A DNA stretch of 63,978 nt, filler included, from Acidimicrobiia bacterium (GTDB lineage Bacteria > Actinomycetota > Acidimicrobiia > Spongiisociales > CAZKJJ01), in assembly GCA_046759765.1 (NCBI GenBank). It is 12 parts of 12 records of this genome, joined end to end, with 100 filler letters (N's around TTAATTAATTAA, not from the genome) between each part and the next. Parts side by side here need not be neighbours in the genome. Positions count along the whole stretch, not along the records: positions 11,699 to 17,347 come from JBHICV010000150.1; 11 more parts are not named here. One strand, written 5' to 3'. How positions within the stretch are numbered: the first letter of the stretch is position 1; every line of letters starts with the position of its first letter. This document shows, piece by piece, positions 5,782 to 23,171 of this stretch. The notes beneath the pieces were generated by a model that did not search any database, was not told the origin of the DNA, and saw only the letters and a program-made list of their open reading frames with translations. Position numbers and translations under genes: made by a program.

Positions 5782-5831
5782 TGGTGGAGGTGACGGGATT
5801 TGAACCCGTGGCCTCTTCGTTGCGAACGAAG
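5782..5831 (-). tRNA. 3' fragment of tRNA-Ala(CGC), probable att-site duplicate
   Basis: Reverse complement gives anticodon arm CTTCG-TTCGCAA-CGAAG, T-arm GGTTCAAATCC and CACCTCCA-CCA end; 5' flank GGCCTGAT is not a D-arm. Confidence 0.8.
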
Positions 5832-5839
5832 ATCAGGCC

Positions 5840-7238: not shown

Positions 7239-7245
7239 CTGGTCC

Positions 7246-7767: not shown

Positions 7768-7818
7768 CGTCGTCGACAGTCACCGAGCGTAGTGGGCGGG
7801 GCCTGACGCCCGTGAGGT

Positions 7819-8832: not shown

Positions 8833-9709
8833 CGCTCGACCTCCGCGCGTCGCTCGAGCAACACGTGCAACGCAGCCGCATCCATCTCGCCGAGCCCGGC
8901 GGATACGGCCTCCTCGTATACAGGGTGCGCCGCGTCCAGCAAGGGCGTGGGCACGTCGAGACTCCGAGCAAACTCGGAGACGACTCCCAGATCCTTGATG
9001 AACATCGCCAGCTTGGCCGCGGGCGGGTCGTAGATTCCGGACACCATCATCGGGCCCCTGATCTCGAGGACACGTGAGCTACCCACCCCGGCCGACAGGG
9101 CCTGGAGGATTGCCTCGGCGTCCAGTCCGGCCTTGGTTCCGAGAACAAAGGCTTCGGCCGTAGCCAGGTTGTGCACCGAGACGAGCAAGTTGGCGAGGAA
9201 CTTCATGCGAGAGCCGTTGCCGAAAGCTCCAAGATCGAATGTCTCGGTCCCCAGGATTCCGAAGATCGGACCGACGCTCTCGAGGGCGTCAGGCGGGCCA
9301 CTGGCGTAGATCACGACCTCGCCCGTCGTGGCCTGGAGGCCCGTGCCACTCACCGGTGCATCTATCACGGCCACGCCCTTTGGCTCGAGGGTGTCCCGGA
9401 CGCCCTCCTTGGTTGCGAGCGCCAGCGTGCTCATCTCGATCAAAACCGTCCCCGGCGGCGCTTCGGCAGCAAGTCCCTCCTCACCGCTCACCGCTTGCTC
9501 GAGCGCGATTGCCGACGGCAGGGCGGTTATCACTACATCTGACCGCGCAGCGACGGCCCCGGACGACTCGACCGCGACCCCACCTGCTTCCTCGAACAGC
9601 TTCGCCTGGCCGGCTGCGACGTCGTACCCGACTACCTCCAGCCCGGCACGGAGCAGATTCTCGGCGTACGCACTGCCCATGATTCCCGGCCGATCACTCC
9701 AACGTTCAT
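8829..9709 (-). pseudogene. NAD(P)-dependent 3-hydroxyisobutyrate/6-phosphogluconate-type dehydrogenase, 1-nt deletion in the GxGxMG motif
   Basis: ATG AAC GTT GGA GTG ATC GGC C[.]G GGA ATC ATG gives MNVGVIGLGIMG only if one base is added near 9688; DAPVSG and MKFLAN motifs intact; could be an assembly error. Confidence 0.75.
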
Positions 9710-9722
9710 CACGTAACTCCGA

Positions 9723-10502
9723 TCAGTCGTCGAGGAAGGTGCGGATCACTTCAACAAGCGCTCCCGGTTGTTGTAGCTGAGGGCAGTGGCCGCAGTCCTC
9801 CAGGGTGACTTGGGATGCGCTGCGGATCCCGTTGGCCAGGTCGGCTGCCATGTCAGGCGGCGTCGTTTCGTCATCAGCGCCCACCACGACCAGCGTCGGG
9901 TTATCGATCTTCGGCAGGTAAGGCCGCAGATCCATCGCCGCCAGCGCCCGGCAGGCGGCCGCGAAAGCACGGGGGTCGACGGTCAAGAGCACCCGTCGCC
10001 TCTCCTCGACCACCGACGGGGTCTGCTCGACGTAGTGAGTTGGAAAGATCCGCCGAACAGCCGTGTTGACGACGGCTTCCATTCCCTCTTCTTCGACCAT
10101 TCGGCTCATGGTGTGAAACGCCTCGGATCGTTGGGGGGAGAATACGGCTCCGCAGTTGGTGGCAATCAAGCGATCGAAGAGAGGGCCGTGCCGGAAAGCC
10201 AGCGCGACGGCTACGAACCCACCGAGGCCGTTTCCCAGCACCGCTCCGTCGGGACCCAGTTCGAGTGTTTCCAGGACTCCGGCAACCCAGTCCGCAAGAT
10301 CCTCGATGCTTGGGTCGTCGAGAACAGAGCTCTTGCCGAATCCAGGCAAGGACACACGACAAACGGTGTGTCGAGGAGTCAGACCTGGAAGAATCAGGTC
10401 GAAGGCCGCGGGATCGGTCAGCAAAGAGTGAATCAGCAGGAGCGGTGGACCCTTTCCCTGGATCTCGACCTCGACAAGTCGGCCGTCGAATATCAGCTCC
10501 AA
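9723..10502 (-). CDS. alpha/beta hydrolase (3-oxoadipate enol-lactonase-like)
   Basis: LLLIHSL, SLPGFG, GNGLGG elbow without the usual Ser, PTLVVVGADD, CGHCPQLQQP. Confidence 0.8.
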   Translation of the reverse strand: MELIFDGRLVEVEIQGKGPPLLLIHSLLTDPAAFDLILPGLTPRHTVCRVSLPGFGKSSVLDDPSIEDLADWVAGVLETLELGPDGAVLGNGLGGFVAVALAFRHGPLFDRLIATNCGAVFSPQRSEAFHTMSRMVEEEGMEAVVNTAVRRIFPTHYVEQTPSVVEERRRVLLTVDPRAFAAACRALAAMDLRPYLPKIDNPTLVVVGADDETTPPDMAADLANGIRSASQVTLEDCGHCPQLQQPGALVEVIRTFLDD

Positions 10503-10526
10503 GGGCGGGTCACTTTCCCTGTGCCA

Positions 10527-10901
10527 TCAATCCGGTTCGGCACCCAGCGTCGCCATGAACGAGGCTTTGTAGTCGGGGGTGCGGCCCATGTAGCCGTAGG
10601 TGAGGCGTGCCCAAACGGCAATCGCGTCGCGAGCCGCCAGCAGATCCTCCGTGGTGTAGCTCGGCATGAAGAAGGGGTGAATAGTGATTCCATGGCGGTC
10701 CTCGGCGAGCATGACGTCGCGAAGGGTCGGATCATGCAGGACGTCGTAGGCGGGCGATCGAGCGGGCAGCGTTCCGCAAAGCCGGATGCGTCGTCACGTC
10801 CTCTACACGCTCGCCGTCGATCCACACCTCACGGCCGTCCCGAAGGGATGCGAGGTAGGACCCCCTGTCAGCACCTTGCGGGATACGGTCGTCTCTGTCA
10901 T
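10527..10901 (-). pseudogene. truncated, doubly frameshifted 4-hydroxyphenylacetate 3-hydroxylase (HpaB/PvcC family) N-terminus
   Basis: [37 protein letters not shown] and WARLTYGYMGRTPDYKASF lie in different frames; only ~120 codons of a ~500-aa family remain. Confidence 0.85.
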
Positions 10902-10996
10902 CACTCCACCTCCACAGAACGAAACTAACTACTCGAGGCAAGTCCGGCCTCGGGCGCCAGGGAGAGCTCGTGCTTCTGTGGTGATGCCCGGCTCGC

Positions 10997-11598
10997 TTAC
11001 TGCACCGCCAGGCGCCCGCCGTCGACAGGCAGGTTGACCCCGGTCACGTAGGAAGCGGCGGGCGAGGCCAGAAAGGCAACCACCTCCCCAATCTCGGAAG
11101 GTTGTCCGAGCCGGCCGGCCGGAATGGCGGCCAGCGTCCGCTCCTCCACCTCTGCGGGTGTCCTGTTCGTGGCCTCCGCCAGGCTGCTCATGAAGGCTCG
11201 TAGTCGCTCGGTTTCGATCGAGCCGGGCAGGATGTTGTTGACCGTGATCCCGTGTGGAGCCAGCTCCGCCGCCAATGTCTTGCCCCATTGGGCTACGGCT
11301 CCACGAACCGTGTTCGAAACCCCCAGGTTGGGAATCGGGGTGATAACCGAGCTGGAGATGATGTTTACGATTCGGGCGTAACCCTCCTCCATCATTCCGG
11401 GCAGCAGGGTCTGAACCAGCCCCTGGTTGGCAAGGAGGTGGAGTTCGAACCCGGCCGCGAACGACTCCGGCTCCGCCTCATAGGCAGGTCCGGGAGGGGG
11501 CCCGCCCGTGTTGTTCACGAGCACCACGATGGGACCCCGGGCCTCGATCTCTTTGGCCACCTTCTCGCGCAGAGATCGCCAGTCGGAGAAGTCGACCG
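10997..11598 (-). CDS. SDR family oxidoreductase, 3' part (5' part is at 17106-17347)
   Basis: [38 protein letters not shown]. Confidence 0.9.
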
Positions 11599-11698
11599 NN
11601 NNNNNNNNNNNNNNNNNNNNNNNNNNNNNNNNNNNNNNNNNNTTAATTAATTAANNNNNNNNNNNNNNNNNNNNNNNNNNNNNNNNNNNNNNNNNNNN

Positions 11699-11845
11699 AA
11701 CATCGTGATCGAGACGTATGCCGATCTTCCGGATTCCATGGTTCAACAGTTGCCGAACATCAAGCTGATGCTGTACGGGTTGCTTCTGGTGCTGGTAATC
11801 ATGTTCAGGCCCCTGGGGATCCTGGGTCAGCCGAAGCGCGGCTAG
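11699..11845 (+). CDS. branched-chain amino acid ABC permease (LivM-like), C-terminal fragment
   Basis: KLMLYGLLLVLVIMFRPLGILG C-terminal motif; upstream of two ABC ATPases. Confidence 0.75.
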   Translation, partial: NIVIETYADLPDSMVQQLPNIKLMLYGLLLVLVIMFRPLGILGQPKRG

Positions 11846-11849
11846 CACG

Positions 11850-12656
11850 ATGGATAGCTCCACTCACCCGAAGGAGAGTCAGGGCCCGGGCTCGAGGGAC
11901 GAGAAGATTCGCCTCACGAACGTCTCCAAGAGCTTCGGCGGCCGGAAGGTCGTCGACATCGAGCGCCTTGACCTGGGACGGCATGGGATCGAGGGGCTCA
12001 TCGGCCCGAATGGGGCGGGCAAGACAACGCTGATGAACCTCATCACCCACCAGCTGCGGGCGGACAGCGGGGAGGTGATCTACTCGCCGAACCACCAAGG
12101 GACCAGCCTCACACAAAAGAAACCGGACGAGATCGCACGGCTGGGCATCGTCAAGTCCAATCAGATCATCCAGGACTTCGAGAGTCTCACGATCAAGGAC
12201 TCGATGCTTTTGGCAAACTGCCCGCCCCGCTACGAGCGGTTCTACAGGATCTTCAGCGAGGGACAGTTGCGAGAGGAGTCCGCGGATGAGCTGGCGGAGT
12301 ATCTGGAGTATTTCCACTTCCAAGATGCGAGTTCCTATGCCCTCTCAGCCGGAGAGAAGAAGCTGTTGGACATCATCCGCTGTCTGCTACTCAAGCCACG
12401 GTTCCTGCTCTTGGACGAACCGACGGCCGGCTTGCCTGAGGATCAGACCAACTTGATGATGGAGTTGATGGCCAAAAAGACGAAAGAGGAGGACATATCC
12501 ATCTTGATCGTTGAGCACGACCTCGATCTCATCTGGGAAGTGTGCGAGTTCGTGCACTTCATGGCCGAGGGTGAGATCTTGCTCCAGGGATCTCCGACGG
12601 ATATACGCGGCAACCGCACGCTGGCCGAAAAGTACCTGGGGTCGAGCCATGTTTGA
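11850..12656 (+). CDS. branched-chain amino acid ABC ATP-binding protein (LivG-like)
   Basis: GLIGPNGAGKTT, LSAGE, LLLDEPTAG, VEHD. Confidence 0.9.
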   Translation: MDSSTHPKESQGPGSRDEKIRLTNVSKSFGGRKVVDIERLDLGRHGIEGLIGPNGAGKTTLMNLITHQLRADSGEVIYSPNHQGTSLTQKKPDEIARLGIVKSNQIIQDFESLTIKDSMLLANCPPRYERFYRIFSEGQLREESADELAEYLEYFHFQDASSYALSAGEKKLLDIIRCLLLKPRFLLLDEPTAGLPEDQTNLMMELMAKKTKEEDISILIVEHDLDLIWEVCEFVHFMAEGEILLQGSPTDIRGNRTLAEKYLGSSHV

Positions 12657-13341
12657 GGCCCGGGCCGTCGAGAGCGGGTATGGCGGTGTGACTGTGCTCA
12701 AGGGCCTCGATTTCTCGGTTGGGGAGGAGGTGTTCGCCGTCTTGGGAGCGAACGGAGCAGGAAAGAGCACCCTCATGAAGACGATTGCTCGGATCCTGCC
12801 CCTGAAGGCGGGTGAGATGCACTTCAAAGGAAGAGATGTCTCCGATGTCGCTCCGTACGAGTTGGCCCGATCGGGAATGGCCTACGTGCCGCAGGAGGAG
12901 AGCATCTTCCCTGAGCTGACCGTCGGTGAGAACCTTTCGATCGGGGCTCTGATGGGGTCGCGTCGCAAACAGGAGCGGATGGACGAAACCTTTGAGCTCT
13001 TCCCCGACCTGGTCGAACGCGTCAACCAGCAGGCGGGTACTCTCAGCGGCGGAGAGGCGCAGATGCTGGCGGTCGCGCGGGCATTGATGCAGGATCCCGA
13101 GCTGTTACTTCTGGACGAGCCAACGGCCGGCCTGGCACCCAAGTACGTAGACGGTCTGTTCAGCAGGATCAAGGACATCCATCAAAGCCGAGGGGTAAAC
13201 ATCGTGCTGAGCGAGCAGAACGCGGCGAAGACGCTCGCCGTTGCCGACCGGGTAATGGTGCTCAGCCTGGGCCGGATCTTTCTCATCGAAGCCACCGAGA
13301 ACGTGGATATGGAGGCACTAAAGGAGGGATACCGGATATAG
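12649..13341 (+). CDS. branched-chain amino acid ABC ATP-binding protein (LivF-like)
   Basis: GANGAGKST, AGTLSGGE, LLLLDEPTAGLAP, EQNA. Confidence 0.9.
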   Translation: MFEARAVESGYGGVTVLKGLDFSVGEEVFAVLGANGAGKSTLMKTIARILPLKAGEMHFKGRDVSDVAPYELARSGMAYVPQEESIFPELTVGENLSIGALMGSRRKQERMDETFELFPDLVERVNQQAGTLSGGEAQMLAVARALMQDPELLLLDEPTAGLAPKYVDGLFSRIKDIHQSRGVNIVLSEQNAAKTLAVADRVMVLSLGRIFLIEATENVDMEALKEGYRI

Positions 13342-13483
13342 GAACCACGCGGCAGAAAGAACAAGACCCTGACTAGCCTTTGCAGACGGCCGCCGCTTTC
13401 CAGGCGGTGCCAAGGAGGAGCAAGATACGGCAAATCTACTGAGAATTCGGAACACAAAGCACAGGCGAACTGAGGGAGGCTAG

Positions 13484-14764
13484 ATGACCATGAGAAGAAG
13501 ATGGCTAGGCGGCATCGGCATGCTCCTAGCTCTTGCACTCGTCGCCGCCGCCTGCGGCGAGGACGAAGGTGCAGCCTTACCGGACGAAATAGTCGTCGGT
13601 CACCTGTCCTATCACACCGGTGACTTCGGTGTTGTCGGACCCTGGTTCGATGCTTCGACCGACTTTGCGATCGCACTCATCAATGAGGATCCTCCGCTGG
13701 GGATTCCGCTGAGGGCTATCCACCAGGACATCGGGACGATTGGGGAGGCTGCGGCGGCTCAGAAGCTCCTCGAGCAGGACGGCACCACCGTGCTGCTAAA
13801 CCCGGCCCATAACTACGGGGCCTACCGGGACTTCATGCTCGATTGGCAAGCCGAGAACAACCTGCCGCTGATGCCGTCCGTGCATGGCGGTTCGATTTCA
13901 TCCGACATCGGCGGTATCGCAAGCGAGCCGATAATGCGAGGCGCTCCGATGGACACGGCCCAGGCGACAGCTGCCCTGATTGTGGCCAGGGACCAGGGGG
14001 CGCAGGCCATCGCCTTGATGGCCACCGAGGTCGAGGGCAGCCAGCTGCAGATGGATTCGGCGACTCAGGTCGCGGTGGACATGGGTTTGAACGTCGTGCT
14101 CGAGCTCAACGTCCCGCCCGACCAAGCTTCGTATCGCGCCGAGATCGAACGGATCGGGGACTCCGGGGCCGACTGGTTGCTGTTCTTCAGCCAGGCTCCC
14201 ACCGGGGGCACGGTCGTCAAGCAAGCGGCCGAGGCGGGTCTGTCGTTGAACATCATTGGTACCAGTGAATGGACCGGCGGCGAGTTCCCCGAAGGGGCGA
14301 CGATGGAAGCCATCAACCAGCATCGGACTGTGTGGGTCTCGGCGTTCAGCCCGGTGGACAGTCCGGCCTGGACGTTCTACGAGCCGAAGTGGACGGCACA
14401 ATACGCCGGCGTCGTGGATCAGCCGGCCGAGAACTCCTACACGATTCAGTACTACGACGTGATCAACGTGACAGCGTTGGCCATCGAGAAGGCAGGATCG
14501 CTGGACGCCAATCTCTGGATACCGGCCATGCGAGAAGTCGCCATGGCGCCCGGAACCGTTTGCTACAGCTACGGCGAGTGCGTAACGCACGTACGGGCGG
14601 GTACCGACATCGACTACTTCGGAGTGACCGGAGATATGAACTACACCGATACGGGTGTGGTCACCGGTGCCTTCGCCATGTGGGAATGGCAGGACGAAGC
14701 AACGTTGAACAAGGTGCTCGACGTCGACGGTGACGAGGTCCTCAGCCTCGACATCTACGGCTGA
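13484..14764 (+). CDS. ABC substrate-binding lipoprotein (periplasmic binding protein type 1)
   Basis: LVAAAC lipobox; C-terminal DIDYFGVTGDMNY; operon context. Confidence 0.85.
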   Translation: MTMRRRWLGGIGMLLALALVAAACGEDEGAALPDEIVVGHLSYHTGDFGVVGPWFDASTDFAIALINEDPPLGIPLRAIHQDIGTIGEAAAAQKLLEQDGTTVLLNPAHNYGAYRDFMLDWQAENNLPLMPSVHGGSISSDIGGIASEPIMRGAPMDTAQATAALIVARDQGAQAIALMATEVEGSQLQMDSATQVAVDMGLNVVLELNVPPDQASYRAEIERIGDSGADWLLFFSQAPTGGTVVKQAAEAGLSLNIIGTSEWTGGEFPEGATMEAINQHRTVWVSAFSPVDSPAWTFYEPKWTAQYAGVVDQPAENSYTIQYYDVINVTALAIEKAGSLDANLWIPAMREVAMAPGTVCYSYGECVTHVRAGTDIDYFGVTGDMNYTDTGVVTGAFAMWEWQDEATLNKVLDVDGDEVLSLDIYG

Positions 14765-14784
14765 GAGAGACTGAGCAGACGAAA

Positions 14785-14810
14785 GAAGCGGCGCCTCCGG
14801 GCGCCGCTTC
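14785..14810 (+). terminator. GC-rich hairpin after the binding-protein gene
   Basis: GAAGCGGCGCC-TCCG-GGCGCCGCTTC perfect 11-bp stem. Confidence 0.6.
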
Positions 14811-14868
14811 CCTTACGATCGTCATTTCCAGGCAATAGAGAAGTTCGACCAGATCTGGATTCCGAAAT

Positions 14869-16995
14869 GTGACCTACGTCTACTCCTTTGGCGATCCGCA
14901 CAGACTTCCACGATCGGAAGCGAGGGCGGTCATCGGCGGCAAGGCGGCCAACATCGCGGCGATGGTGGAGTTGGGTCTGCCGGTGCCACCGGGCTTCACT
15001 GTCGGCACTTCTGCGTGTCGGGCGTATCTCGCTGATGGCTGGCCGGAGGGTCTGGACGACGAGATACGGCACCACCTCGGCCGTCTGGAACAAGCAGTCG
15101 GTCGAGGGTTTGGCGACCCGAGGGATCCGCTGCTCGTGAGCGTGCGGTCGGGCGCCGCGGTCTCGATGCCCGGGATGATGGACACGATTCTCAACCTCGG
15201 GCTCAATGACGCCACCACAGAAGGGCTGGTCGCGGTGTCCGGAGATCGACCGTTTGCTGACGCATGCCGCCAAAGGTTCGAGGAGGTGTATAGGGAAGTC
15301 GTGGGCGTTGCCGTGCCTGACGACCCCTGGCAACAGCTGCGGGATGCAATCGAAGCGGTCTTCCGCTCCTGGAACAGCGATCGGGCGCGCGCTTACCGGG
15401 TTCGTGAGGCTATCCCGGACGACCTTGGAACGGCGGTCACTATCCAGGCCATGGTGTTTGGGAACCGAGGTGAAGACTCGGCCACCGGTGTTCTCTTCAC
15501 TCGCAACCCCGCCACCGGCCAGCCAACCCACTACGGGGACATCATGTTCCGCGCTCAGGGAGACGATGTGGTCGCCGGTACCCATCGGACGGAGCCGCTT
15601 TCCGTCCTCGATGAGCGGATGCCTGAGGTCGCCGAAGAGCTCCGGCGTTATGCCGATGCGCTCGAGCCCTTCTTCACCGACGTCTGTGACATCGAGTTCA
15701 CGATCGAGCGGGGCCGGCTGTGGATGCTCCAAGTGCGGATTGGCAAGCGGAGCCCCCAGGCCGCCCTACGGATTGCGGTCGAGATGGCCGAAGACGAAAG
15801 CTTTCCATTGTCACGGGCCGAGGCCGTCGAGCGGGTTGCGCCACTTCTCGCCGATCCTCCGACAACGACGGGCAACCGAAGCGGTGATGCGCAGGTCGTG
15901 GCAACTGGACTGCCTGCGTCGCCGGGCGTGGCATCAGGCGAGATTGTTACCAGGCCCGATGACGCGGTGGTGCAGGCGGAGGCCGGAAAGAGCGTGATTC
16001 TCGTCCGCTCGGAGACCTCCCCGGAGGACGTCCACGGGATGGCCAGGGCGGCGGGCATCCTGACTGCGACCGGTGGTCTCACCAGCCACGCGGCGGTGGT
16101 CGCCAGGGGGTGGGGCATACCGGCAGTGGTTGGGGCGCAGGGGGTGCGCGTGGACGACGGAACGGTCTCGATCGGCGACCTCGCATTTGTGGCTGGGGAC
16201 ATCATCTCGATCGACGGCGGCAACGGCGAAGTCTTTGCCGGCGAGATCGCTAGCACCGCCACGGTCGTCCCGGAGGCGGAGATCCTCCTATCTTGGGCCC
16301 GCGAGCTGGGAATCGAGATCCAAGGTTCAAAGGACATCAGCGTGCCAGACCACAAGAAGATCACCGAGGCCGGCGAGCTCAGTGTCGACAGCCTTGTTCG
16401 AATCCTGCTCATCAAGGGCTTCGCCACCGCGGATCAGATCGCCGCCGCCCTCGGGACGACTCCAGACGAGGCGAGCTCCGTTCTGGATCGACTGGCCGCC
16501 GACGGGTTGGCGGAGCTGACCGGGGGCATGTTTCGGTTGACGCCCGATGGAAGAGCACTGGCTGACGAGATGATTGCGGCTGACCGTGCACAGTGGGGCA
16601 CGGAACAGGCCGAGGAGGCGCTCGATGCCTTCGTTGCAATCGATCAGCGGGTCAAGCAAGTGGTTACGGCTTGGCAGATGCGCGAGGTGGACGGCGAACA
16701 GGTACTCAACGACCATTCTGACCCGGACTACGACTCCTCGGTACTGGCTGACGTTGGCGCTGTCCATACCGAGGCCGTGGCGTGGCTCCGACCGCTAACG
16801 AGCAAACTTTCCCGACTTGATGACTATTTGACCCGGCTGGACAGGGCCGCGGAGCTAGCTCGACAGGGCGATCATGTCTACATCGCCTCACCTACAGTCG
16901 ACAGTTACCACAGCATCTGGTTCGAGCTCCACGAGGATCTGATTGTCCTCGCCGGACGAACCCGGGAGGACGAGGCCGCAGCCGGACGGGCCTGA
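14869..16995 (+). CDS. pyruvate phosphate dikinase-like protein lacking the pyruvate-binding barrel, fused to a winged-helix + helical domain
   Basis: GGKAAN, VPPGF, SVRSGAAVSMPGMMDTILNLGLN, QAMVFGN, GGLTSHAAVVARG; last ~200 aa unrelated to PPDK (wHTH-like segment, DSYHSIWFELHEDL). Confidence 0.88.
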   Translation: MTYVYSFGDPHRLPRSEARAVIGGKAANIAAMVELGLPVPPGFTVGTSACRAYLADGWPEGLDDEIRHHLGRLEQAVGRGFGDPRDPLLVSVRSGAAVSMPGMMDTILNLGLNDATTEGLVAVSGDRPFADACRQRFEEVYREVVGVAVPDDPWQQLRDAIEAVFRSWNSDRARAYRVREAIPDDLGTAVTIQAMVFGNRGEDSATGVLFTRNPATGQPTHYGDIMFRAQGDDVVAGTHRTEPLSVLDERMPEVAEELRRYADALEPFFTDVCDIEFTIERGRLWMLQVRIGKRSPQAALRIAVEMAEDESFPLSRAEAVERVAPLLADPPTTTGNRSGDAQVVATGLPASPGVASGEIVTRPDDAVVQAEAGKSVILVRSETSPEDVHGMARAAGILTATGGLTSHAAVVARGWGIPAVVGAQGVRVDDGTVSIGDLAFVAGDIISIDGGNGEVFAGEIASTATVVPEAEILLSWARELGIEIQGSKDISVPDHKKITEAGELSVDSLVRILLIKGFATADQIAAALGTTPDEASSVLDRLAADGLAELTGGMFRLTPDGRALADEMIAADRAQWGTEQAEEALDAFVAIDQRVKQVVTAWQMREVDGEQVLNDHSDPDYDSSVLADVGAVHTEAVAWLRPLTSKLSRLDDYLTRLDRAAELARQGDHVYIASPTVDSYHSIWFELHEDLIVLAGRTREDEAAAGRA

Positions 16996-17105
16996 GCGCC
17001 GCGCCACTACCTCACACTGCCGGAACCCGACTTCGGTCCTCGAGAGCAAGGTACTGCCGGCATGTCCGAGCGTAAGCTCGTGGTCCGCCGATCAGGAGGA
17101 TCACT

Positions 17106-17347
17106 GTGGCCTTAGCGCTCGAAGGCAAGCGAGCGTTGGTGGGGGGCAGCTCCCGTGGCATCGGTTTCGGGTGTGCGGAGGCGCTCGCCGCCGCCGGGGC
17201 GGAAGTCATCGTGACTAGCCGCGACGCAGATGCTCTGGAGGGGGCTCGCGCTTCGCTGCTGGCACCCCTGGGACAAGACCACCGCGCCATTGCGGTCGAC
17301 TTCTCCGACTGGCGATCTCTGCGCGAGAAGGTGGCCAAAGAGATCGA
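17106..17347 (+). CDS. SDR family oxidoreductase, 5' part
   Basis: ALVGGSSRGIG; last 55 bp identical to the reverse complement of 11544-11598. Confidence 0.9.
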
Positions 17348-17447
17348 NNNNNNNNNNNNNNNNNNNNNNNNNNNNNNNNNNNNNNNNNNNNTTAATTAAT
17401 TAANNNNNNNNNNNNNNNNNNNNNNNNNNNNNNNNNNNNNNNNNNNN

Positions 17448-17525: not shown

Positions 17526-17623
17526 GACAACAAGCGTACCCACCGCCTCGGTCAACGCACATGACTCCCGGCTTGGGGCAGAATGCATCCAACGGAAAGT
17601 ACCGGCCGCCAGGAGTCATTAGA

Positions 17624-17980
17624 GTGTCCGAGCTTCGCCCCAGCTTCGTGCTGTTGGGCCGGATGGGAGACCCGGCCACCGCCCGCGTCGCCGCGGCCCG
17701 CCTCGACGCCGAGGGGATAGAGGTGCGAGTCCACGGCGAGGCGCTGGGGCCTTATCCGGTGACGGTCGGCCAGATGGCCGTGACCGAGCTATGGGTACGG
17801 GATGCTCAGCTGGAGGACGCCCGTCGCCTCATGCTCGAATTCGAGATCGACACGTTGGAGCCGTCCGCAGGGCCCGTCCCGCAGGGCTCGCTGCGGTGGC
17901 TGCGCTTCAGAGTCCTGGCGCTCGCGGTGCTCCTGATCCTCACCGCGCTGGTGGCACGGGCTCTGCTCCGAGTCTTTTGA
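17624..17980 (+). CDS. DUF2007-like putative signal-transducing protein with C-terminal TM helix
   Basis: A..AAARLDAEGIEVRV...ELWVRDAQLEDARRL pattern. Confidence 0.6.
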   Translation: MSELRPSFVLLGRMGDPATARVAAARLDAEGIEVRVHGEALGPYPVTVGQMAVTELWVRDAQLEDARRLMLEFEIDTLEPSAGPVPQGSLRWLRFRVLALAVLLILTALVARALLRVF

Positions 17981-18024
17981 CTGTCTAGCCGACCAGACGC
18001 CGCCAGGACCTTCGGGATGCTGTA

Positions 18025-18705
18025 CTAACCGCGCGCGGCGGCGATCTCGTCGGCCGGCAGCCTGCGGAACGCCCTCCGTCCCAGCGTGCGGTCCACAACG
18101 GCGGCCTCCCAGCCGTCGGGTGCGATCTCGCCGCTATCGAGGGCTTCAAACGAGGCCGTGCTCCAGGCGATGGCCTGCTGGAGGGGAGCATCGTCCTGGT
18201 AGCGCTCCTCGAGCAGGCGGACCAGGTCGTCGGACTGGCCGCCGATGGCGCAGAAGCGGCGCTCGTCGTACAGGGTCCCGTCGTAGGTGACACGGAACAG
18301 CCGATTTCCTTCCGACTCCAGCCCCACCTCGGAGACCAGGATCTCGATCTCGTACGGCTTCACCTCTTGGGTGAAGATATGGCCGAGCGTCTGGGAGTAG
18401 GCATTAGCGAGGCCCTTGGCGGTCACGTCGCTCCGGGCGTAGGCGTAGCCCTTGAGGTCGGCGTGCCTGATGCCGGCCACTCGCAGCGTCTCGAACTCGT
18501 TGTACTTGCCGACCCCGGCGTAGGCGATCCGGTCATAGATCTCGCTGATCTTTTGGAGGGCCCCGCTCGGGTTCTCGCCCACCAGCAGCACGCCGTCCCT
18601 GTACTCGACGGCGACGATGGAGCGTCCCCGGGCGATGCCCTTGCGGGCATACTCCGCCCGATCTTTCATCAGCTGCTCCGGGGGGACGTAGAAGGGCAGG
18701 GTCAC
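18025..18705 (-). CDS. prcA: proteasome alpha subunit
   Basis: PFYVPPEQLMKDRAEYARKGIARGRS, KISEIYDRI. Confidence 0.95.
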   Translation of the reverse strand: MTLPFYVPPEQLMKDRAEYARKGIARGRSIVAVEYRDGVLLVGENPSGALQKISEIYDRIAYAGVGKYNEFETLRVAGIRHADLKGYAYARSDVTAKGLANAYSQTLGHIFTQEVKPYEIEILVSEVGLESEGNRLFRVTYDGTLYDERRFCAIGGQSDDLVRLLEERYQDDAPLQQAIAWSTASFEALDSGEIAPDGWEAAVVDRTLGRRAFRRLPADEIAAARG

Positions 18706-19502
18706 GCCGTCTCCCCCAGAACCGACCGAGCCAGCTCGGCGACGCGCTCCTCGGAAATCTCTCGATACCCGTCACCCGAGACGGTTGCCACGTTGGGAAA
18801 GATCTCGCGGCGAAGATCGGGGCCTCCGGTCGATGTGTCCTCCTCGGCGGCGACCACCAGCGCCTCCAGGGCCAGCCGCAGCCCGTCCTCGACACTGAGA
18901 CCGGGGCGGAAGGCGCTGCGAAGGTGTGACTTGGCCTCCCGGCCCCCCGATCCGGCGGCGGCGAAGTCCTGTTCCTCGTAACGGCCACCGACGACGTCGA
19001 AGCTGTACAGCCGGCCGACGGCCTCCCTCTCGTCGTAGCCACAGAACAGCGGCACCACGCCCAGCCCCTGGAATGCCATCGGTAGCTGTCGCCGCACCAT
19101 CGCGGCGAGGTGGTTGGCCTTGCCGTCGAGGCTGAGCCGGGCGCCCTCCAGCTTCTCGTAATGCTCCAGCTCGGTTTGGAACAGGCGAATCAGCTCCAGC
19201 GCTACTCCCGCGGTTCCAGAGATGGCGACCGCCGAGAAGTTGTCTGCCGGAAAGACCTTCTGGACTCGACGGTGTGCCACGAGGTGCCCCTCGGTGGCTT
19301 GGCGGTCGCCGACCATCGCCACACCGTCCTCGTATCGCACGGCGAGGACAGTGGTTCCCTCCAGCGTTCCGAGTTGGGTGGTGTCGCCTTGCGGTATCTC
19401 CCAGCGCGGTTCCAGTTGGCTGGTGCGCAGCAGTGCTACGAAGCTGGAGGCTGGGGTGACCGGGTCCGCGGGCAGCCCGTCGGGCAACCGGTCTGTGTTC
19501 AC
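18702..19502 (-). CDS. prcB: proteasome beta subunit
   Basis: Propeptide then G|TTVLA (catalytic Thr1), GDRQATEG, ELEHYEKLEG, GSG. Confidence 0.95.
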   Translation of the reverse strand: MNTDRLPDGLPADPVTPASSFVALLRTSQLEPRWEIPQGDTTQLGTLEGTTVLAVRYEDGVAMVGDRQATEGHLVAHRRVQKVFPADNFSAVAISGTAGVALELIRLFQTELEHYEKLEGARLSLDGKANHLAAMVRRQLPMAFQGLGVVPLFCGYDEREAVGRLYSFDVVGGRYEEQDFAAAGSGGREAKSHLRSAFRPGLSVEDGLRLALEALVVAAEEDTSTGGPDLRREIFPNVATVSGDGYREISEERVAELARSVLGETA

Positions 19503-19693
19503 TCCCCGCCCTTTTGCACGTAGTTCTTGACGAACTCCTCTGCGTTCTCCTCGAGGACCGTGTCGATCTCTTCGAGGAGATCGTCGATGCGCTCGGTCAG
19601 CTCCTCACCCAACTCAGACGGGGCTTCCTCCGCGGCTTCGGCGTCCGACTCAGTCTTGTCCGGCTGGGTCTGCCTCCGCTCCTTCTCGGCCAT
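19499..19693 (-). CDS. pup: prokaryotic ubiquitin-like protein Pup
   Basis: DDLLEEIDTVLEENAEEFVKNYVQKGGE; AGGAGG RBS. Confidence 0.97.
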   Translation of the reverse strand: MAEKERRQTQPDKTESDAEAAEEAPSELGEELTERIDDLLEEIDTVLEENAEEFVKNYVQKGGE

Positions 19694-21170
19694 GCTCACC
19701 TCCTAGCGCTTCCACCAGGTCGGCGGCCTCCGGGGACCTGTCCAGTAGGTCGCCGACGCGCTCCTTGTCGCCCCGCAACGGCTCCATCATAGGCACCCGC
19801 TTCAGCGCCTCTTCTCCGACGTCGAAGACGAGTGAATCCCAGTTGGCCGCCACCAAGGCCTCGGCATACCGAGCGACGCATTCGCCCCTGAAGTAGGCCC
19901 TGGTGCGGTCCGGAGGCGATCCGACCGCCGTCCCCACCTCCTCGTCGGTGAACAGCCGCTGCATGCGTCCGGAACGAACCAGGCGGTGGTAAAGACCCCG
20001 CTCGGGATCGACGTCGTGATACTGGAGGTCCAACAGCCGCAGCTTGGTGTCATCCCAGTCGAGGCCGTCCCGCTCCCGGTATCCGAGCAGCAGCCGGTAC
20101 TTGGCCACCCAGTCGAGGCGGTCGGCGGTGCGCATGGGGTCCTGCTCCAGGTCGTGTAGCACTTGCTCCCAGGTGTCGAGCACCGATGAGTACACCGGTT
20201 CGATCTCCGCCACCTCGGCGTACTTCCTCGCCCATTCGAAGTACTGCCATTGAAGGTTGAGGGCGGTCGCCGTGCTTCCGTCGGATAGGCGCAGCACATG
20301 CTGTAACTCGGGATCGTGGCTGACCTGCCACACCGAGTCGACCGGGTTCTCCAGCATGATCGGCTCCGGAAGCGCTCCATCCTCCAGTGCCGCCAGGATC
20401 AGCGCCGCCGACCCCAGCTTGAGGAAGGTCTGGATCTCCGACAGAGTGGCGTCGCCGATGATGACGTGGAGCCGCCGGTACTTGCCCGGTTCGGCGTGGG
20501 GTTCATCCCGGGTGTTGATGATGGGCCGCTTGAGCGTGGTCTCCAACCCGACCTCTTCTTCGAAGAAGTCAGCCCGCTGCGTGATCTGGTAGTTCGCTTG
20601 GGGCCGCCCGTTCTCTGATCCGAGCTTGCCCGACCCGGTGAAGATCTGCCGGCTCACCAGGAAGGCGGTGAAGTGGTGCACCACGTCACCGAACGGCAGC
20701 TCCCGGGCCAGCAGGTAGTTCTCGTGGCACCCGTACGAGTTCCCCTTGCCATCGCTGTTGTTCTTGTGGATGAGCAAGCGCTCTCCTGGACCGAGCAGCT
20801 CCTGTGCGGAGCGGACCGCTCGAGCCAGTACCACTTCTCCGGCCTTGTCGAAGAGGACTGCTTCGAGTGGATCGAAGCACTCCGGCGTCGAGTACTCGGG
20901 GTGGGCGTGGTCGACGTAAAGGCGGGCACCGTTGGTGAGCACGACGTTGACCAGGCCGGTCTCGAAATCCGTCGCCGGGGCTCCCTCAAACCCGAAGCCG
21001 CGGGCGTCGCGTCCGGGGGATTCCTCTTCGTATGACCACTGGATTCGGGCGCGCCCTCCCGCGTAGGAGTTGATGACCATGCTCGACGAGAGCACCGGGT
21101 TGAAGTCGGGCTGGTTTTGGACCGTGATGCCGTATTCGGTCTCGGTCCCGAGGACCTTATGCAGCGCCAT
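19650..21170 (-). CDS. dop: depupylase/deamidase Dop
   Basis: GTETEYGI, LTNGARLYVDHAHPEYSTPE, KNNSDGKGNSYGCHENYL, ETTLKRPIINTRDEPHA. Confidence 0.95.
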   Translation of the reverse strand: MALHKVLGTETEYGITVQNQPDFNPVLSSSMVINSYAGGRARIQWSYEEESPGRDARGFGFEGAPATDFETGLVNVVLTNGARLYVDHAHPEYSTPECFDPLEAVLFDKAGEVVLARAVRSAQELLGPGERLLIHKNNSDGKGNSYGCHENYLLARELPFGDVVHHFTAFLVSRQIFTGSGKLGSENGRPQANYQITQRADFFEEEVGLETTLKRPIINTRDEPHAEPGKYRRLHVIIGDATLSEIQTFLKLGSAALILAALEDGALPEPIMLENPVDSVWQVSHDPELQHVLRLSDGSTATALNLQWQYFEWARKYAEVAEIEPVYSSVLDTWEQVLHDLEQDPMRTADRLDWVAKYRLLLGYRERDGLDWDDTKLRLLDLQYHDVDPERGLYHRLVRSGRMQRLFTDEEVGTAVGSPPDRTRAYFRGECVARYAEALVAANWDSLVFDVGEEALKRVPMMEPLRGDKERVGDLLDRSPEAADLVEALGGEHGREGAEADPAGQD

Positions 21171-21176
21171 CAGGGC

Positions 21177-22898
21177 TCACAGGTACTGGCCGGTGGTGAT
21201 GGCTTCGATGCTTCGGCTTTCTCCGTCTCCTGCGAGCAGGGTGCGAACGTAGATGATCCGCTCGCCCTTCTTTCCGGAGATGCGGGCCCAGTCGTCTGGG
21301 TTGGTGGTGTTGGGGAGATCTTCGTGCTCTCGAAACTCCTGGGCGATGGCGTCAAGGAGGTCGTTGGTACGCACCCCGGGGGGCCCGTCGCTGATCTCCC
21401 GCTTGATCGCCTCTTTCTTGGCGCGTCGGACGATGTTCTCCATCATCGCCCCGCTGGAGAAGTCTCTGAAGTGGAGGATGTCCTTGTCTCCGTTGGAGTA
21501 GGTGACCTCCAGGAAGCGGTTCTTCTCATCGGTCGAGTACATCTGCTCGACCACCCGATCGATCATGTTGTTGACCAGAGCCTGCCGATCGCCGCCGAAT
21601 CGGGTCAGTTCCTCCTCGGCCAGGGGGATGGTCGGCACCAAGTAGATGGCGAAGACCTCCCGGGCCGCGTCGAGGTCGGGGCGCTCGATCTTTATCTTCA
21701 CGTCCAGCCGGCCGGGTCGCAGGATGGCCGGGTCGATGAGGTCCTCGCGGTTGGAGGCCCCGATCACGATCACGTTCTTGAGGGTCTCAACGCCGTCCAG
21801 TTCGGAGAGGAGTTGGGGAACGATGGTCGATTCGACGTCCGACGAGATCCCACTGCCCCGGGTGCGGAAGAGCGAATCCATCTCGTCGAAGAACACGATG
21901 ACGGGCACCCCCTCATCGGACTTCTCCTTGGCCCGGGCAAAGATGAGGCGGATCTGGCGCTCAGTTTCGCCAACATACTTGTTCAGCAGCTCCGGACCCT
22001 TGATGTTGAGGAAGTAGGACCGCGAATCCTCGTCACCGGTCTTGGCCGCCACCGCCCGGGCGAGGCTGTTGGCAACCGCCTTGGCGATCAGCGTCTTGCC
22101 GCACCCCGGCGGCCCGTAGAGCAGCACACCCTTGGGGGCGGCGAGGTCGTACTCATCGAACAGCACTTTGTGCAGATAAGGCAGTTCCACCGCGTCGCGG
22201 ATCGACTCGATCTGAGCACTGAGCCCCCCGATGTCGCTGTACTCGATGTCGGGGACCTCTTCCAGCACCAGCTCTTCGACCTCGGGCCGTACCAACCGCT
22301 CGAACGTCATGCCAGTGCGAGGGTCGATCCGCACTTGGTCCCCAATGCGGAGGAACTGGTCCTCCATCGGGCCGGCGAGCTCTACGACCCGTTCCTCGTC
22401 GGCCCGTCCGAGCACGATGATGCGGCGGTCGCCGAGGATCTCCTTGATGGTGACGACTTCTCCGGTCGGTTCGAAGTTGCGGACGTCGATGACGTTGAAG
22501 GCCTCGTTGAGCAGCACCTCCTGGCCTCGTTCCAGCTGCTTGACCTCGATGGTTGGCTCGACGTTGACCCGGAGCTTGCGGCCAGAGGTGAATACGTCCA
22601 CCGTGCCGTCGGGATTGAGGTCCATGACGATCCCGAAGGGGTTGGGGGGCGAAGTGAGTTTCTCGACCTCGTCGCGCAGCACCGCGAGCTGCTCGCGGGT
22701 CTCTTCCAGGACAGCGGAGAGCTTCTCGTTTTGGGCGCCGGCCTGGGCGAGACGGCCCCTGGCCTCGAGCAGCCGCTCCTCCAGCACCCGTACCCTCCTG
22801 GGAGCATCCTGCAGCCGTCGGCGCAGGATGGCGATCTCCTCCTCGAGCATCTTGACCGTATTCCGAAGCTCAGTCGCCTCTCGGTCGAAATCTTCCAA
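21177..22898 (-). CDS. arc: proteasome-associated AAA ATPase ARC/Mpa
   Basis: Coiled coil, [26 protein letters not shown]-terminal GQYL; TTG start inferred from RBS. Confidence 0.95.
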
Positions 22899-23171
22899 CT
22901 CCGGCCCCTCGCTCGTCTCAGCCTCTATATCGACACAATATTGCCCGTCCTTTCGGAGTATAAGACCGTTGCGGACTTGGGCCGTGCAACCCGGTAGCTT
23001 GTGACAACCGGCCTCTTGGCTACAATCCCGCAAAGGCGCTCCGAGGAACCCGAGGACCCATGAAGGTTTGGNNNNNNNNNNNNNNNNNNNNNNNNNNNNN
23101 NNNNNNNNNNNNNNNTTAATTAATTAANNNNNNNNNNNNNNNNNNNNNNNNNNNNNNNNNNNNNNNNNNNN

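Follow-up and report, generated by a model that had tools for sequence, protein, structure and literature searches.

A PPDK-derived phosphohistidine module fused to an Rv1126c-like domain, a candidate second docking site

In canonical pyruvate phosphate dikinase (PPDK), the phosphohistidine of the swivel domain swings to a TIM barrel that binds PEP/pyruvate, and this barrel is also the dimerization domain of the enzyme. In enzyme I of the PTS, the swivel His domain hands its phosphate to a small partner, HPr. The ATP-grasp and swivel domains are common to RPH, HpeHI, PpsAB, and PPDK, and what is exchanged among these enzymes is the second substrate domain (PMC12167813).

A truncated PPDK-like His kinase is already known. 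VadK (Rv1127c), described in 2025-26 as a His kinase of non-canonical type required for propionate/cholesterol metabolism and virulence in Mycobacterium tuberculosis, is ATP/Mg-dependent and autophosphorylates on His422; the H422A mutant is inactive (PMC13400623, EMBO Rep 2026). Co-expression of Rv1126c raises the solubility of VadK, and it takes a 2 M NaCl wash to strip off Rv1126c, without which VadK still autophosphorylates. In that paper, Rv1126c is named solely as a solubility-improving partner, removed ahead of the VadK assay, and the authors, who propose that VadK~P regulates PrpC/PrpD directly, assign it no role. By their RNA-seq, the methylcitrate genes are not under transcriptional control by VadK, and Rv1126c has a log2FC of -0.59 in the vadK mutant; the supplements hold RNA-seq only and no Rv1126c interaction data. 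The paper also cites 13C flux work in which PPDK flux was absent in M. tuberculosis.

Domain content of the fused gene

The gene described here lies in a window of 63,978 nucleotides, the whole stretch of DNA analyzed, in which 12 MAG contigs of an Acidimicrobiia bacterium are concatenated with 100-nt spacers (N...TTAATTAATTAA...N) between them. Because the window joins separate contigs, only positions 11699-17347, a 5,649-nt contig that contains the ORF entirely, are genuine gene context.

14869..16995, plus strand: whole ORF, 708 aa plus stop, with ATP-grasp domain, His swivel, linker, winged helix, and helical domain (translation, Pfam, NCBIfam, structure model).
14869..15873, plus strand: PPDK-type nucleotide-binding (ATP-grasp) domain, residues 1-335 (PF01326, E 4.3e-45; 1kbl alignment; Foldseek match to 1kbl, E 1.2e-42).
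15874..16320, plus strand: phosphohistidine swivel (central) domain and linker helices, residues 336-484, with PF00391 at 374-453 (Pfam, PDB alignment, model).
16087..16089, plus strand: codon of His407 in GGLTSHAAVVARGW, which aligns with the PPDK catalytic His455 and corresponds to VadK His422 (alignment; PMC13400623).
16321..16380, plus strand: flexible linker, residues 485-504, with pLDDT <50 for 486-502 (structure model).
16381..16542, plus strand: winged helix-turn-helix subdomain of three helices and a beta hairpin, residues 505-558, with an acidic helix at the recognition position (model, profile and fold search, charge analysis).
16543..16992, plus strand: helical subdomain with no assigned family, residues 559-708, with invariant W602, Q603, H681, W684, and R699 and a conserved tail GR.R..E..AGRA (alignment, model).
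16900..16941, plus strand: DSYHSIWFELHEDL signature, residues 678-691 (degenerate DNA pattern, which retrieved at least 120 genome loci).
11599..11698, no strand: artificial spacer at the left end of the gene-bearing 5,649-nt contig (spacer sequence).
17348..17447, no strand: artificial spacer at the right end of the gene-bearing contig (spacer sequence).

The ORF begins with GTG, and its N terminus agrees with the consensus of 51 homologues. It contains every peptide string quoted in the preliminary description (GGLTSHAAVVARG, LLIKGFATADQIAAALG, FRLTPDG, VTAWQMR, NDHSDPDYD, and DSYHSIWFELHEDL), the first of which includes His407 (codon nt 16087-16089). Two readings of the surrounding pieces were rejected: a pair of SDR gene fragments considered as an inversion are two contig ends, and the window ORF at 5946-7238, considered as the recurrent ~600-aa swivel protein found near Chloroflexota fused genes, showed 29% identity by BLAST, in the swivel part only. 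The 18 ORFs scanned (window pieces 2-5) gave no prpC/prpD-type Pfam match, and no methylcitrate-cycle genes were seen on the gene's own contig, which is only 5.6 kb long in an incomplete genome.

The kinase half is of the dikinase type. Both PPDK_N (PF01326) and PEP-utilizers (PF00391, E 6.6e-23) are matched, Foldseek with the full model returns PPDK-type and ATP-grasp structures only, and this half is 41% identical to the PPDK of Clostridium symbiosum (PDB 1kbl/1dik), whose nucleotide-binding and central domains it resembles with a TM of 0.59 over 525 columns. K25, R290, T405, and H407 correspond in the 1kbl alignment to K22, R337, T453, and H455, all conserved in the query (equivalences counted by hand from the alignment, with chain numbering +1; the names K22A, R337A, and T453A are those of PDB titles), and the swivel His lies in a GGxTSHAA-type motif, as in canonical PPDK. 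Unlike in that enzyme, however, the N-terminal domain is ~45 residues short (query 134 = PPDK 179), and an unrelated winged-helix and helical domain stands in place of the TIM barrel: the PDB PPDK alignments span residues 4-487 only, and the 708-aa ORF has no Pfam match to a PEP/pyruvate-binding C-terminal domain. TIGR01828 (canonical PPDK, EC 2.7.9.1) scores 545.5 bits, below its cutoff of 843.45, and NCBIfam NF004531 (Rv1127c type) scores 513.1 bits over residues 17-504, above its cutoff of 456; the M. colombiense kinase reaches 921.6 bits on the latter. The preliminary description, which had reported an ATP-grasp domain and a swivel His with no TIM barrel and had doubted the "ppdK" label, was right on both counts. 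The label is functionally wrong because the barrel is missing and TIGR01828 falls below its cutoff.

Both halves have counterparts in adjacent Mycobacterium genes (M. colombiense, M. alsense, M. uberis, and others), the kinase half being 43-47% identical to them and the C-domain 33-40% (E 1e-27 to 1e-34). The order in Mycobacterium is kinase and then partner, with which the fusion is collinear, and which we take to be the setting of Rv1127c and Rv1126c in M. tuberculosis as well. The peptides that the rv1127c primers in PMC13400623 would encode are present in those mycobacterial kinases. The proposed identity as an Rv1127c + Rv1126c fusion is thus upheld in its collinearity and homology to adjacent gene pairs, with the link running through Mycobacterium species other than M. 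tuberculosis (in a search seeded with the M. colombiense partner, the matches listed were M. avium-complex relatives only, M. tuberculosis being absent from them). As in VadK and Rv1126c, which stick to each other (PMC13400623), an ATP-grasp domain and His swivel of the NF004531 type, with no TIM barrel, go together with a domain homologous to the product of the next gene after the kinase in Mycobacterium species. In contrast to that pair, the query is one polypeptide, has a PPDK-like swivel motif (SHAAVVARGW versus the mycobacterial SHAAVVSREL), and belongs to a separate, fully fused clade. At the level of sequence, the domain content, the intact catalytic residues, the missing barrel, and the homology to the mycobacterial pair are established.

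The system had been called uncharacterized, which no longer applies to the kinase half, Rv1127c having been published as VadK (PMC13400623). For the C-domain, residues 505-708, no Pfam or NCBIfam family is matched above threshold. Its 204 residues are predicted with high confidence (pLDDT 96.7) as the expected winged helix followed by a helical part, and a PDB fold search with the C-domain alone gives 0 matches at E <= 1e-3. Below threshold, Foldseek likens residues 505-575 to the DNA-binding domains of IdeR, AspA, MntR, and MarR (72-81 columns, rmsd 1.4-2.9 Å, E ~0.02), and a profile search relates the winged helix to an iron-dependent repressor (E 8e-5). The suggested comparison with MarR holds for the fold but not for the family: Pfam MarR/MarR_2 give the query 16-18 bits against a cutoff of 27, and among 69 C-domain members, MarR_2 matches 7 and MarR 4, all below cutoff, with no Pfam HTH family reaching its cutoff in any. 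The query also differs from MarR/DtxR-type regulators in its acidic recognition helix and in its remaining domain, which is unmatched. Judged by sequence, the helix at the recognition position (532-544) carries a median net charge of -2, Lys/Arg never exceeding 20% at any of its positions; for the helical part, the median is -8. In the ESM Atlas, the C-domain falls in unnamed or "MarR-like" clusters only, and the helical part alone finds nothing. Kinship with GntR/FCD regulators, raised by weak Foldseek rows, was rejected (hhalign against 14 FCD regulators, 14.6% probability over 46 columns, HTH only), no tool backed a DinB-like or MntR-like metal site, and neither NCBIfam nor fold matches revealed a rifampin-binding-like second substrate domain in the C-domain. 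Because the helical subdomain is without structural precedent, its catalytic or ligand site is not inferable by homology. H681 is invariant in 69/69 diverse C-domains and in 43/43 swivel/C-domain pairs, and the DSYH..WFELHE motif is present in 111 of 150 representatives.

Distribution and gene order

Clustering at 50% identity gives at least 1,843 representatives that contain the C-domain. Its members come from records bearing the labels Actinomycetota, Chloroflexota, Methylomirabilota, and Pseudomonadota. Public records name homologues "pyruvate, phosphate dikinase" and the mycobacterial stand-alone members "MarR family transcriptional regulator." The fused layout appears in 689 protein clusters and on long contigs, one of them 2.37 Mb in length (locus L016). 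Among the 120 long homologues in the matches listed, PF00391 is present in 120/120 and PF01326 in 116/120; PF00391 is likewise present in all 11 long representatives scanned, 3 of which are without PPDK_N.

We classified 80 genome loci, with counts corrected by hand (the pattern scan gave at least 120 loci, M. tuberculosis not being among those listed). The fusion is present in 28, as 25 intact and 3 frameshifted copies. Where the two genes are adjacent, the kinase comes first at 14 loci and the C-domain first at 13; at 5 the kinase is merely nearby. Acidithrix ferrooxidans (L025) and Novosphingobium rosa (L030) are examples of organisms with natural split pairs. Three Arthrobacter loci pair the C-domain with a lone swivel ORF of 119-155 aa, recognized as PF00391 by Pfam in L048 and L062, where the same-strand neighbors scanned include no ATP-grasp, and by a custom HMM and the common His motif in L079. 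At 7 of the 80, most of which adjoin dapA and rnj in Acidimicrobiia, the C-domain gene is flanked on each side by at least 2.5 kb free of kinase and swivel genes, and the C-domain may therefore act alone or with a distant partner. These solitary copies notwithstanding, gene order shows the C-domain to be coupled in the genome to a swivel domain. The notion that the two proteins act as one unit is thus sustained by their fusion, by their occurrence as split genes in both orders, and by their predicted docking. Contexts vary by clade, and the locus comparison yielded no conserved metabolic neighbor hinting at a substrate.

In the C-domain tree, the query falls in a separate, wholly fused clade of 19 rows (SH-aLRT 100), mainly Chloroflexota with a single row each from Acidimicrobiia and Methylomirabilota. 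Over the whole tree, the "fused" label has to change 5 times, but well-supported branches force just 1 of these changes, so it is not established that the fusion arose more than once.

In its modularity, the family resembles rifampin phosphotransferase, HpeHI, PpsAB, and CreHI (PMC12167813; see also PMC4844700), in which a cassette of ATP-grasp and swivel His is likewise joined to an exchangeable second domain, sometimes as two proteins. The analogy is not exact. In the RPH/HpeHI type, the rifampin-binding fold, to which the query C-domain has no detectable similarity, is N-terminal to the swivel, and the split falls after the ATP-grasp domain, whereas in the query family it falls after the swivel.

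Predicted docking and the role of the C-domain

Complex prediction for the swivel (residues 336-484) and the C-domain (501-708) gave ipSAE values of 0.80, 0.80, and 0.79, versus 0.02 for the best of 3 controls; the runs share at least 95% of their contacts, with partner pLDDT of 89-90. Of 157 solved complexes, 116 attain the ipSAE mark, as do 2 of 215 pairs that were mismatched, rates that are only rough here because we supplied our own alignment; no similar complex has been solved, the C-domain having no PDB match. The predicted interface comprises residues 401-402, 404-407, 409-411, and 413-415 of the swivel and residues 515-518, 596-597, 599-600, 603-604, 673-676, 681-682, 685-686, 699-700, and 708 of the C-domain. 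The His407 loop is modelled on an invariant patch (K596, T600, Q603, H681, F685, and R699), with F685 against His407 and H681 one helical turn from F685; the His407 loop is predicted to reach H681, F685, and E686 of the DSYH/ELHE residues, the contact that the preliminary description had proposed to check. Among the invariant residues, Q603, H681, and R699 lie within the interface, with W602 and W684 on its flanks; K516 and G517, the residues conserved in the winged helix itself, also fall within it. At the predicted contact 414-674, examined in 43 pairs, residue 674 is Arg/Lys in 17 of the 19 with Glu414 and in 0 of the 23 with Gly414, a covariation that tracks two large clades and may therefore reflect just one or two evolutionary events. 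The docking geometry expresses model confidence, and a tethered domain could simply park on the His loop.

We propose that the protein is a three-module descendant of the dikinases in which the C-domain has taken the place of the TIM barrel, serving as the second site for docking and phosphate acceptance, a reading whose chances we judge to be about even. First, the ATP-grasp domain would phosphorylate His407 with ATP, as shown experimentally for the homologue VadK. Second, the swivel would dock its His407 loop on the fused Rv1126c-like domain instead of on a TIM barrel, in a putative pocket built of the family-invariant K516/G517, K596, T600, Q603, H681, F685/E686, R699, and the C-terminal tail. 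Third, because the loop is predicted to dock at this pocket, the C-domain would supply the enzyme's second site, at which the phosphoryl group is handed on. We infer both this transfer and the identity of the acceptor, which would most likely be a ligand in the C-domain pocket, by analogy with other ATP-grasp and swivel enzymes, and next His681 itself. Finally, the winged helix would be part of the docking surface and not a DNA reader. DNA binding by it seems unlikely because the helix at the recognition position is acidic, and with K516 and G517 in the predicted interface, the DNA-binding output offered in the preliminary description as one alternative is weakened. The published account of VadK, in which PrpC/PrpD are proposed as direct targets of VadK~P and Rv1126c has no role (PMC13400623), runs counter to a second site on this domain.

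It is possible, though we are doubtful, that the system is instead a His-to-His phosphorelay, in which His407~P passes its phosphate to His681 and the phosphorylated C-domain serves as a signal, through its winged helix on DNA or on target enzymes. The invariance of H681 (69/69 C-domains and all 43 pairs) and its modelled place one helical turn from the F685 that faces His407 are consistent with such a relay, and enzyme I and HPr provide a precedent for transfer from swivel His to protein His. Enzyme I has a homologous swivel His domain, recovered here as weak matches in profile and PDB searches, but it is charged by PEP via a TIM barrel and not by ATP, and HPr is of unrelated fold. A regulatory output is suggested by the likeness of the winged helix to the DNA-binding domains of IdeR, MntR, and MarR (rmsd 1.4-2.9 Å; profile E 8e-5) and by the "MarR family transcriptional regulator" label of the mycobacterial members, but is opposed by the charge of the recognition-position helix (median -2, Lys/Arg at most 20% per position) and of the helical part (-8), by the lack of any Pfam HTH family at cutoff in 69 members, and by RNA-seq in which VadK does not control the methylcitrate genes transcriptionally (PMC13400623). 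Phosphorylated Rv1126c has also not been reported, and the authors of that paper took Rv1126c off before the assay. Such a relay, if true, would join two-component systems and the PTS as a third kind in bacteria.

A non-catalytic C-domain, which only stabilizes, dimerizes, or auto-inhibits the kinase by covering its His loop and passes no phosphate, is in our estimate unlikely, and we think the same of the version in which it is a structural stand-in for the lost TIM barrel. Such a subunit would account for the solubility that Rv1126c confers on VadK, for the autophosphorylation of VadK alone (PMC13400623), and for a predicted interface that masks a catalytic loop that must be free for the ATP site; it would, however, leave unexplained a near-universal polar signature (DSYH..WFELHE in 111/150; invariant H681, Q603, and R699) and the pairing of the domain with lone swivel domains and non-PPDK swivel proteins. 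That the gene encodes an ordinary pyruvate phosphate dikinase, as the names of homologues and 41% identity to the C. symbiosum enzyme would have it, or is an assembly chimera, a concern raised earlier, is very improbable given the lack of a PEP/pyruvate domain, a TIGR01828 score of 545 bits against 843, the absence of PPDK flux in the 13C work on M. tuberculosis (cited in PMC13400623), and the recurrence of the fused layout in 689 protein clusters, on long contigs (L016, 2.37 Mb), and as 25 intact and 3 frameshifted copies among 80 loci.

Implications for VadK and the dikinase family

If the C-domain is a second docking and acceptor site, the modular dikinase family gains a new second domain. 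The fused gene suggests that a small, unstudied neighbor protein is the docking place of the kinase's phosphate-carrying arm, and the fused form, together with the separate-gene, reversed-order, and lone-swivel arrangements of other phyla, supports the view that this neighbor is the cognate partner of the kinase. Two widespread labels are also flagged as mis-annotations: fused proteins are recorded as "pyruvate, phosphate dikinase" and stand-alone members as "MarR family regulator." More speculatively, and with less than even confidence by a good measure, the Rv1126c-like domain might be a new phospho-acceptor module that, with PPDK-derived or other swivel-His donors, forms a third widespread class of bacterial His phosphotransfer beside two-component systems and the PTS, its invariant His681 pocket being the missing output step of VadK. 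The gene arrangements and the docking model, which sets the catalytic His against invariant partner residues, combine into a concrete hypothesis, testable by mutation, for where the phosphate of VadK goes.

The fused gene and its PPDK-derived half

The ORF lies entirely within piece 3 of the joined contigs (11699-17347, 5,649 nt), and all of the strings quoted in the preliminary description were found in its translation.

14869-16995, +, ORF encoding the fused protein; GTG start, 708 residues
16087-16089, +, codon of His407, the swivel catalytic His, within GGLTSHAAVVARGW
17106-17347, +, and 10997-11598, -, short-chain dehydrogenase halves at two contig ends

The 12 contigs descend in length from 5839 to 2399 nt and are separated by 100-nt N spacers with a central TTAATTAATTAA, across which gene adjacency is meaningless.

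5840-5939, 11599-11698, 17348-17447, 23072-23171, 28730-28829, 34357-34456, first six spacers
39892-39991, 45364-45463, 50763-50862, 56127-56226, 61480-61579, last five spacers

At their right ends, pieces 2 and 3 overlap exactly over 55 nt in reverse complement, probably by an assembler k-mer. Merged at this overlap, they contain a single short-chain dehydrogenase ORF of 262 aa, and therefore piece 2, reversed, comes after piece 3 in the genome. Upstream, the fused gene is preceded by two ABC ATPases and a Peripla_BP_6 binding protein, and the dehydrogenase lies downstream, followed on reversed piece 2 by a 380-aa family-less ORF, a 3-hydroxyisobutyrate-dehydrogenase-like gene and an amidohydrolase. 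Among the matches listed, the nearest named homologues are from Acidimicrobiia. Another contig carries a Pup-proteasome cluster (17561-23033, genes 18025-23033) with two proteasome subunits, a Pup-ligase family protein, an Mpa/ARC-type AAA ATPase and a DUF2007 protein, which fits an actinobacterial MAG.

In Pfam, the protein matches PPDK_N (E 4.3e-45) and, at residues 374-453, the PEP-utilizers mobile domain (E 6.6e-23), with no match to the PEP/pyruvate-binding domain. Solved PPDKs align to residues 4-487 only, so the pyruvate-binding TIM barrel is missing, as had been noted. By alignment to 1kbl, K25, R290, T405 and H407 correspond to K22, R337, T453 and H455 of PPDK (counted by hand with chain numbering +1, mutant names being taken from PDB titles). 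The protein falls short of TIGR01828, the full PPDK equivalog (545 bits versus a cut-off of 843), and passes NF004531 (513 bits versus 456), a 534-position model likewise named "pyruvate, phosphate dikinase." Because the Mycobacterium colombiense kinase scores 921.6 bits against NF004531 from end to end, the latter is effectively a model of truncated VadK-type enzymes.

A second ORF in the window (5946-7238, +; 430 aa, truncated where its contig begins) matches PPDK_N and PEP-utilizers weakly and has PEP-synthase/RPH-like matches in NCBIfam, and is thus a second, different swivel-His enzyme of the same genome. It is not a member of the ~600-aa family found near fused genes elsewhere.

The C-domain and its predicted docking

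The C-domain (residues 505-708) is predicted to fold as a winged helix, made of three helices and a hairpin, that leads into long helices and another hairpin (pLDDT 96.7, pTM 0.90, from a 69-sequence alignment). The wHTH-like segment noted earlier is borne out as a predicted fold, and not as membership of a Pfam family. Against the PDB, the family profile matches winged-helix parts alone, those of MarR, MntR and iron-dependent repressors (E 8e-5 for the last). Foldseek returned nothing at E <= 1e-3, and its good superpositions, to IdeR, AspA and MarR-type winged helices, span only 72-81 columns. None of the 69 members reached a Pfam cut-off, the weak matches all being to HTH families; NCBIfam gave no match, and ESM Atlas matches were only to unnamed or "MarR-like" clusters. 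A suspected likeness to GntR/FCD was rejected (hhalign probability 14.6%).

Across the family, W602, Q603, H681, W684 and R699 are invariant, and near-invariant positions include K516-G517, N614-D615-H616, D678-S679, F685-E686 and H688. The invariant residues, including those of the winged helix, are explained by a predicted docking surface. When the swivel (336-484) and C-domain (501-708) were predicted as a complex, ipSAE values were 0.80, 0.80 and 0.79, versus 0.02 for the best of three controls; the runs shared at least 95% of contacts, with partner pLDDT of 89-90. Of solved complexes, 116 of 157 reach the ipSAE mark, as do 2 of 215 mismatches; these counts are only rough here because a custom alignment was used. 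As no related complex has been solved, the pass does not reflect a known structure, and the docking remains the model's confidence.

On the swivel side, the predicted interface comprises the catalytic loop (401-402, 404-407, 409-411 and 413-415) and, on the C-domain side, K516-G517, K596, T600, Q603, 673-676, H681, F685-E686, R699 and the C-terminus. His407 is placed against F685, and V410 against H681, Q603, T600 and K596. In data outside the predictor input, swivel residue 414 covaries with C-domain residue 674 (43 pairs: Gly-Ser 20, Glu-Arg 15, Glu-Lys 2, Gly-His 2 and four others once each), a pattern that splits along two large clades and may stem from few events in evolution.

Distribution and the mycobacterial pair

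A C-domain profile search gave 1,843 representatives at E <= 1e-3 (of 1.84 billion). Among the 150 listed, 93 are of at most 260 aa, 27 are of at least 600 aa, and 111 carry the DSYH..WFELHE signature. There are 689 C-domain-containing clusters of 389-1239 aa; among the 120 listed, most are of 700-745 aa, with PF00391 in all 120 and PF01326 in 116. These clusters and the intact fusions at 25 of 80 loci show that the fusion is not an assembly chimera. Split forms occur alongside fused ones, in either gene order.

Arrangements at 80 loci with flanks, corrected by hand
Intact fusions: 25 (including L037, its 5' part in other frames)
Frameshifted fusions: 3 (L007, L033, L052)
Adjacent, kinase then C-domain: 14
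Adjacent, C-domain then kinase: 13
Kinase elsewhere within the flank: 5
Arthrobacter lone swivel ORF (119-155 aa, His motif) then C-domain: 3
C-domain without partner within at least 2.5 kb on each side: 7
Other arrangements: 2 (L073, L080)
Contig edge, undecidable: 8

At locus L073, the C-domain precedes a 684-aa protein with a C-terminal swivel domain; at L080, a small swivel protein is followed by a fusion of the C-domain with an unknown protein of the 518-aa type. Three of the long representatives, which resemble RPH/PRK08296-type proteins, join a non-PPDK N-terminus to a swivel domain and C-domain. The swivel His domain is the common denominator of the fused, split, lone-swivel and non-PPDK arrangements. 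One representative, P0331 (1049 aa), has two PEP-utilizers domains ahead of the C-domain. The fused genes of L007, L033, L037 and L052 (uncultured Chloroflexia MAGs) lie in at least two frames, through sequencing errors or as pseudogenes.

A 73-sequence C-domain tree puts the window protein in a clade of 19 rows, all of them fused (SH-aLRT 100), together with 16 rows from Chloroflexota and one each from Acidimicrobiia and Methylomirabilota. The fused forms of Nocardia and Alphaproteobacteria branch outside this clade, but a single origin of fusion is compatible with all strongly supported branches.

Gene neighborhoods vary between clades and indicate no substrate.

9072-10069 (L048) and 8997-10072 (L062 and L079, turned, match on +), Arthrobacter swivel-only ORF of 119-155 aa with TETGGMLSHAAIVAREF directly before the C-domain gene
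9458-10102 (L009; also L002, L008, L020, L027, L029, L046, L074), stand-alone C-domain gene of Acidimicrobiia/Microthrixaceae just upstream of dapA and RNase J
2758-13778 (L025; also L013, L026, L030, L040, L049, L055, L070), C-domain before kinase
6035-10096 (L058), 1353-aa ORF, longer by ~640 residues at the N-terminus, which may simply come from calling the ORF start too far upstream

In Arthrobacter, the swivel ORFs of both L048 and L062 were confirmed to carry PF00391, and the same-strand neighbors scanned at these two loci included no ATP-grasp gene. Flanks of the C-domain genes beside dapA and RNase J hold no kinase or swivel gene; in L009, the sole such locus scanned in full, dapB and SURF1 precede the C-domain gene. 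These C-domains and the Arthrobacter copies form a separate basal clade. A cluster that recurs in Chloroflexota (e.g. L006, L016, L038, L045 and L058) has the fused gene after a PRK08296/RPH-like protein of ~600 aa with a C-terminal swivel domain, a GntR/FCD regulator and a three-subunit molybdenum hydroxylase (FAD_binding_5, Fer2_2, MoCoBD), and before a metallo-beta-lactamase-fold gene and a dehydrogenase. C-domain-before-kinase loci carry variable subsets of a small swivel protein, the 518-aa unknown protein, an acyl-CoA synthetase, a thiolase and a Y_phosphatase3 phosphatase; Acidithrix (L025) has all five plus biotin carboxylase subunits on one strand, a layout that, by analogy, recalls kinase-carboxylase-phosphatase catabolic pathways. 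In Nocardia (L003, L004, L075, L077), a Y_phosphatase3 gene starts 17-88 nt past the signature-motif start, and thus near or overlapping the fused-gene stop.

The proposed equivalence to Rv1127c plus Rv1126c was examined through other Mycobacterium species, M. tuberculosis being absent from the at least 120 genome loci and the relatives listed for the M. colombiense partner being of the M. avium complex. In M. colombiense, M. alsense, M. uberis, Mycolicibacterium porcinum and several Mycobacterium MAGs, the gene immediately after a truncated PPDK-like gene encodes a C-domain (~201-204 aa in the best-supported reading). The window protein is collinear with both products, at 43-47% identity to the kinases and 33-40% to the C-domains (E 1e-27 to 1e-34). 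Neighbors of the pairs (DoxX, a WS/DGAT-like gene, alpha/beta hydrolases, a 6PGD-like gene and G6PD) agree with what we take to be the Rv1121-Rv1128c gene order. Of the peptides implied by the rv1127c primers in PMC13400623, GAASHAAVVSREL is present in the kinases of L023 and L041, and AVFASWNSP in those of L031 and L056, among others. Because the pairs are collinear and adjacent, with matching primer peptides and neighbors, the fusion claim is supported at the family level.

Possible roles of the C-domain

PMC13400623 (EMBO Rep 2026; preprint 10.1101/2025.10.30.685616) renames Rv1127c VadK and reports ATP/Mg-dependent autophosphorylation on His422, abolished by H422A, restraint of methylcitrate-cycle flux without transcriptional control, and pulldown of PrpC and PrpD. 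There, Rv1126c figures only in Methods, as an "operonic partner" that raises solubility when co-expressed and takes a 2 M NaCl wash to separate; the supplements add only a slight fall of Rv1126c mRNA in the mutant. In that text "fused" is absent, and "fusion" occurs solely within an instrument name. Literature searches on Rv1126c/Rv1127c, VadK/PPDK and swivel dikinases turned up neither the fused form nor a function for the Rv1126c-like partner.

The predicted docking, the invariant residues at the interface and the 414/674 covariation lead us to read the C-domain as a replacement for the TIM barrel, where it would serve as second station of the swinging phospho-His. As to the fate of the phosphate there, we infer that a bound ligand would be the favored acceptor because of family precedent: in PMC12167813, dikinases keep the ATP-grasp and swivel and vary the second substrate domain, and components may be split. 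Several observations count against the second-station reading. First, VadK autophosphorylates without its partner and, second, its authors' model needs none (both from PMC13400623). Third, the C-domain is partner-less in 7 of 80 loci. Finally, the clade-dependent neighborhoods name no substrate.

A His-His relay from His407 to His681 is a less likely alternative, favored by the invariant His681, which adjoins His407 in the predicted complex. A purely structural or auto-inhibitory C-domain is a third option. DNA binding is least likely, as acidic residues prevail in the helix that would read DNA (median charge -2, Lys/Arg at most 20% at every position); the helical part has a median charge of -8. 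The preliminary description is confirmed as an observation, and its interpretation is upheld in part: the fusion is supported at the family level, and a DNA-binding output is weakened.

With a second station for the phospho-His as the favored reading, the fused form makes the output of VadK testable in specific terms.
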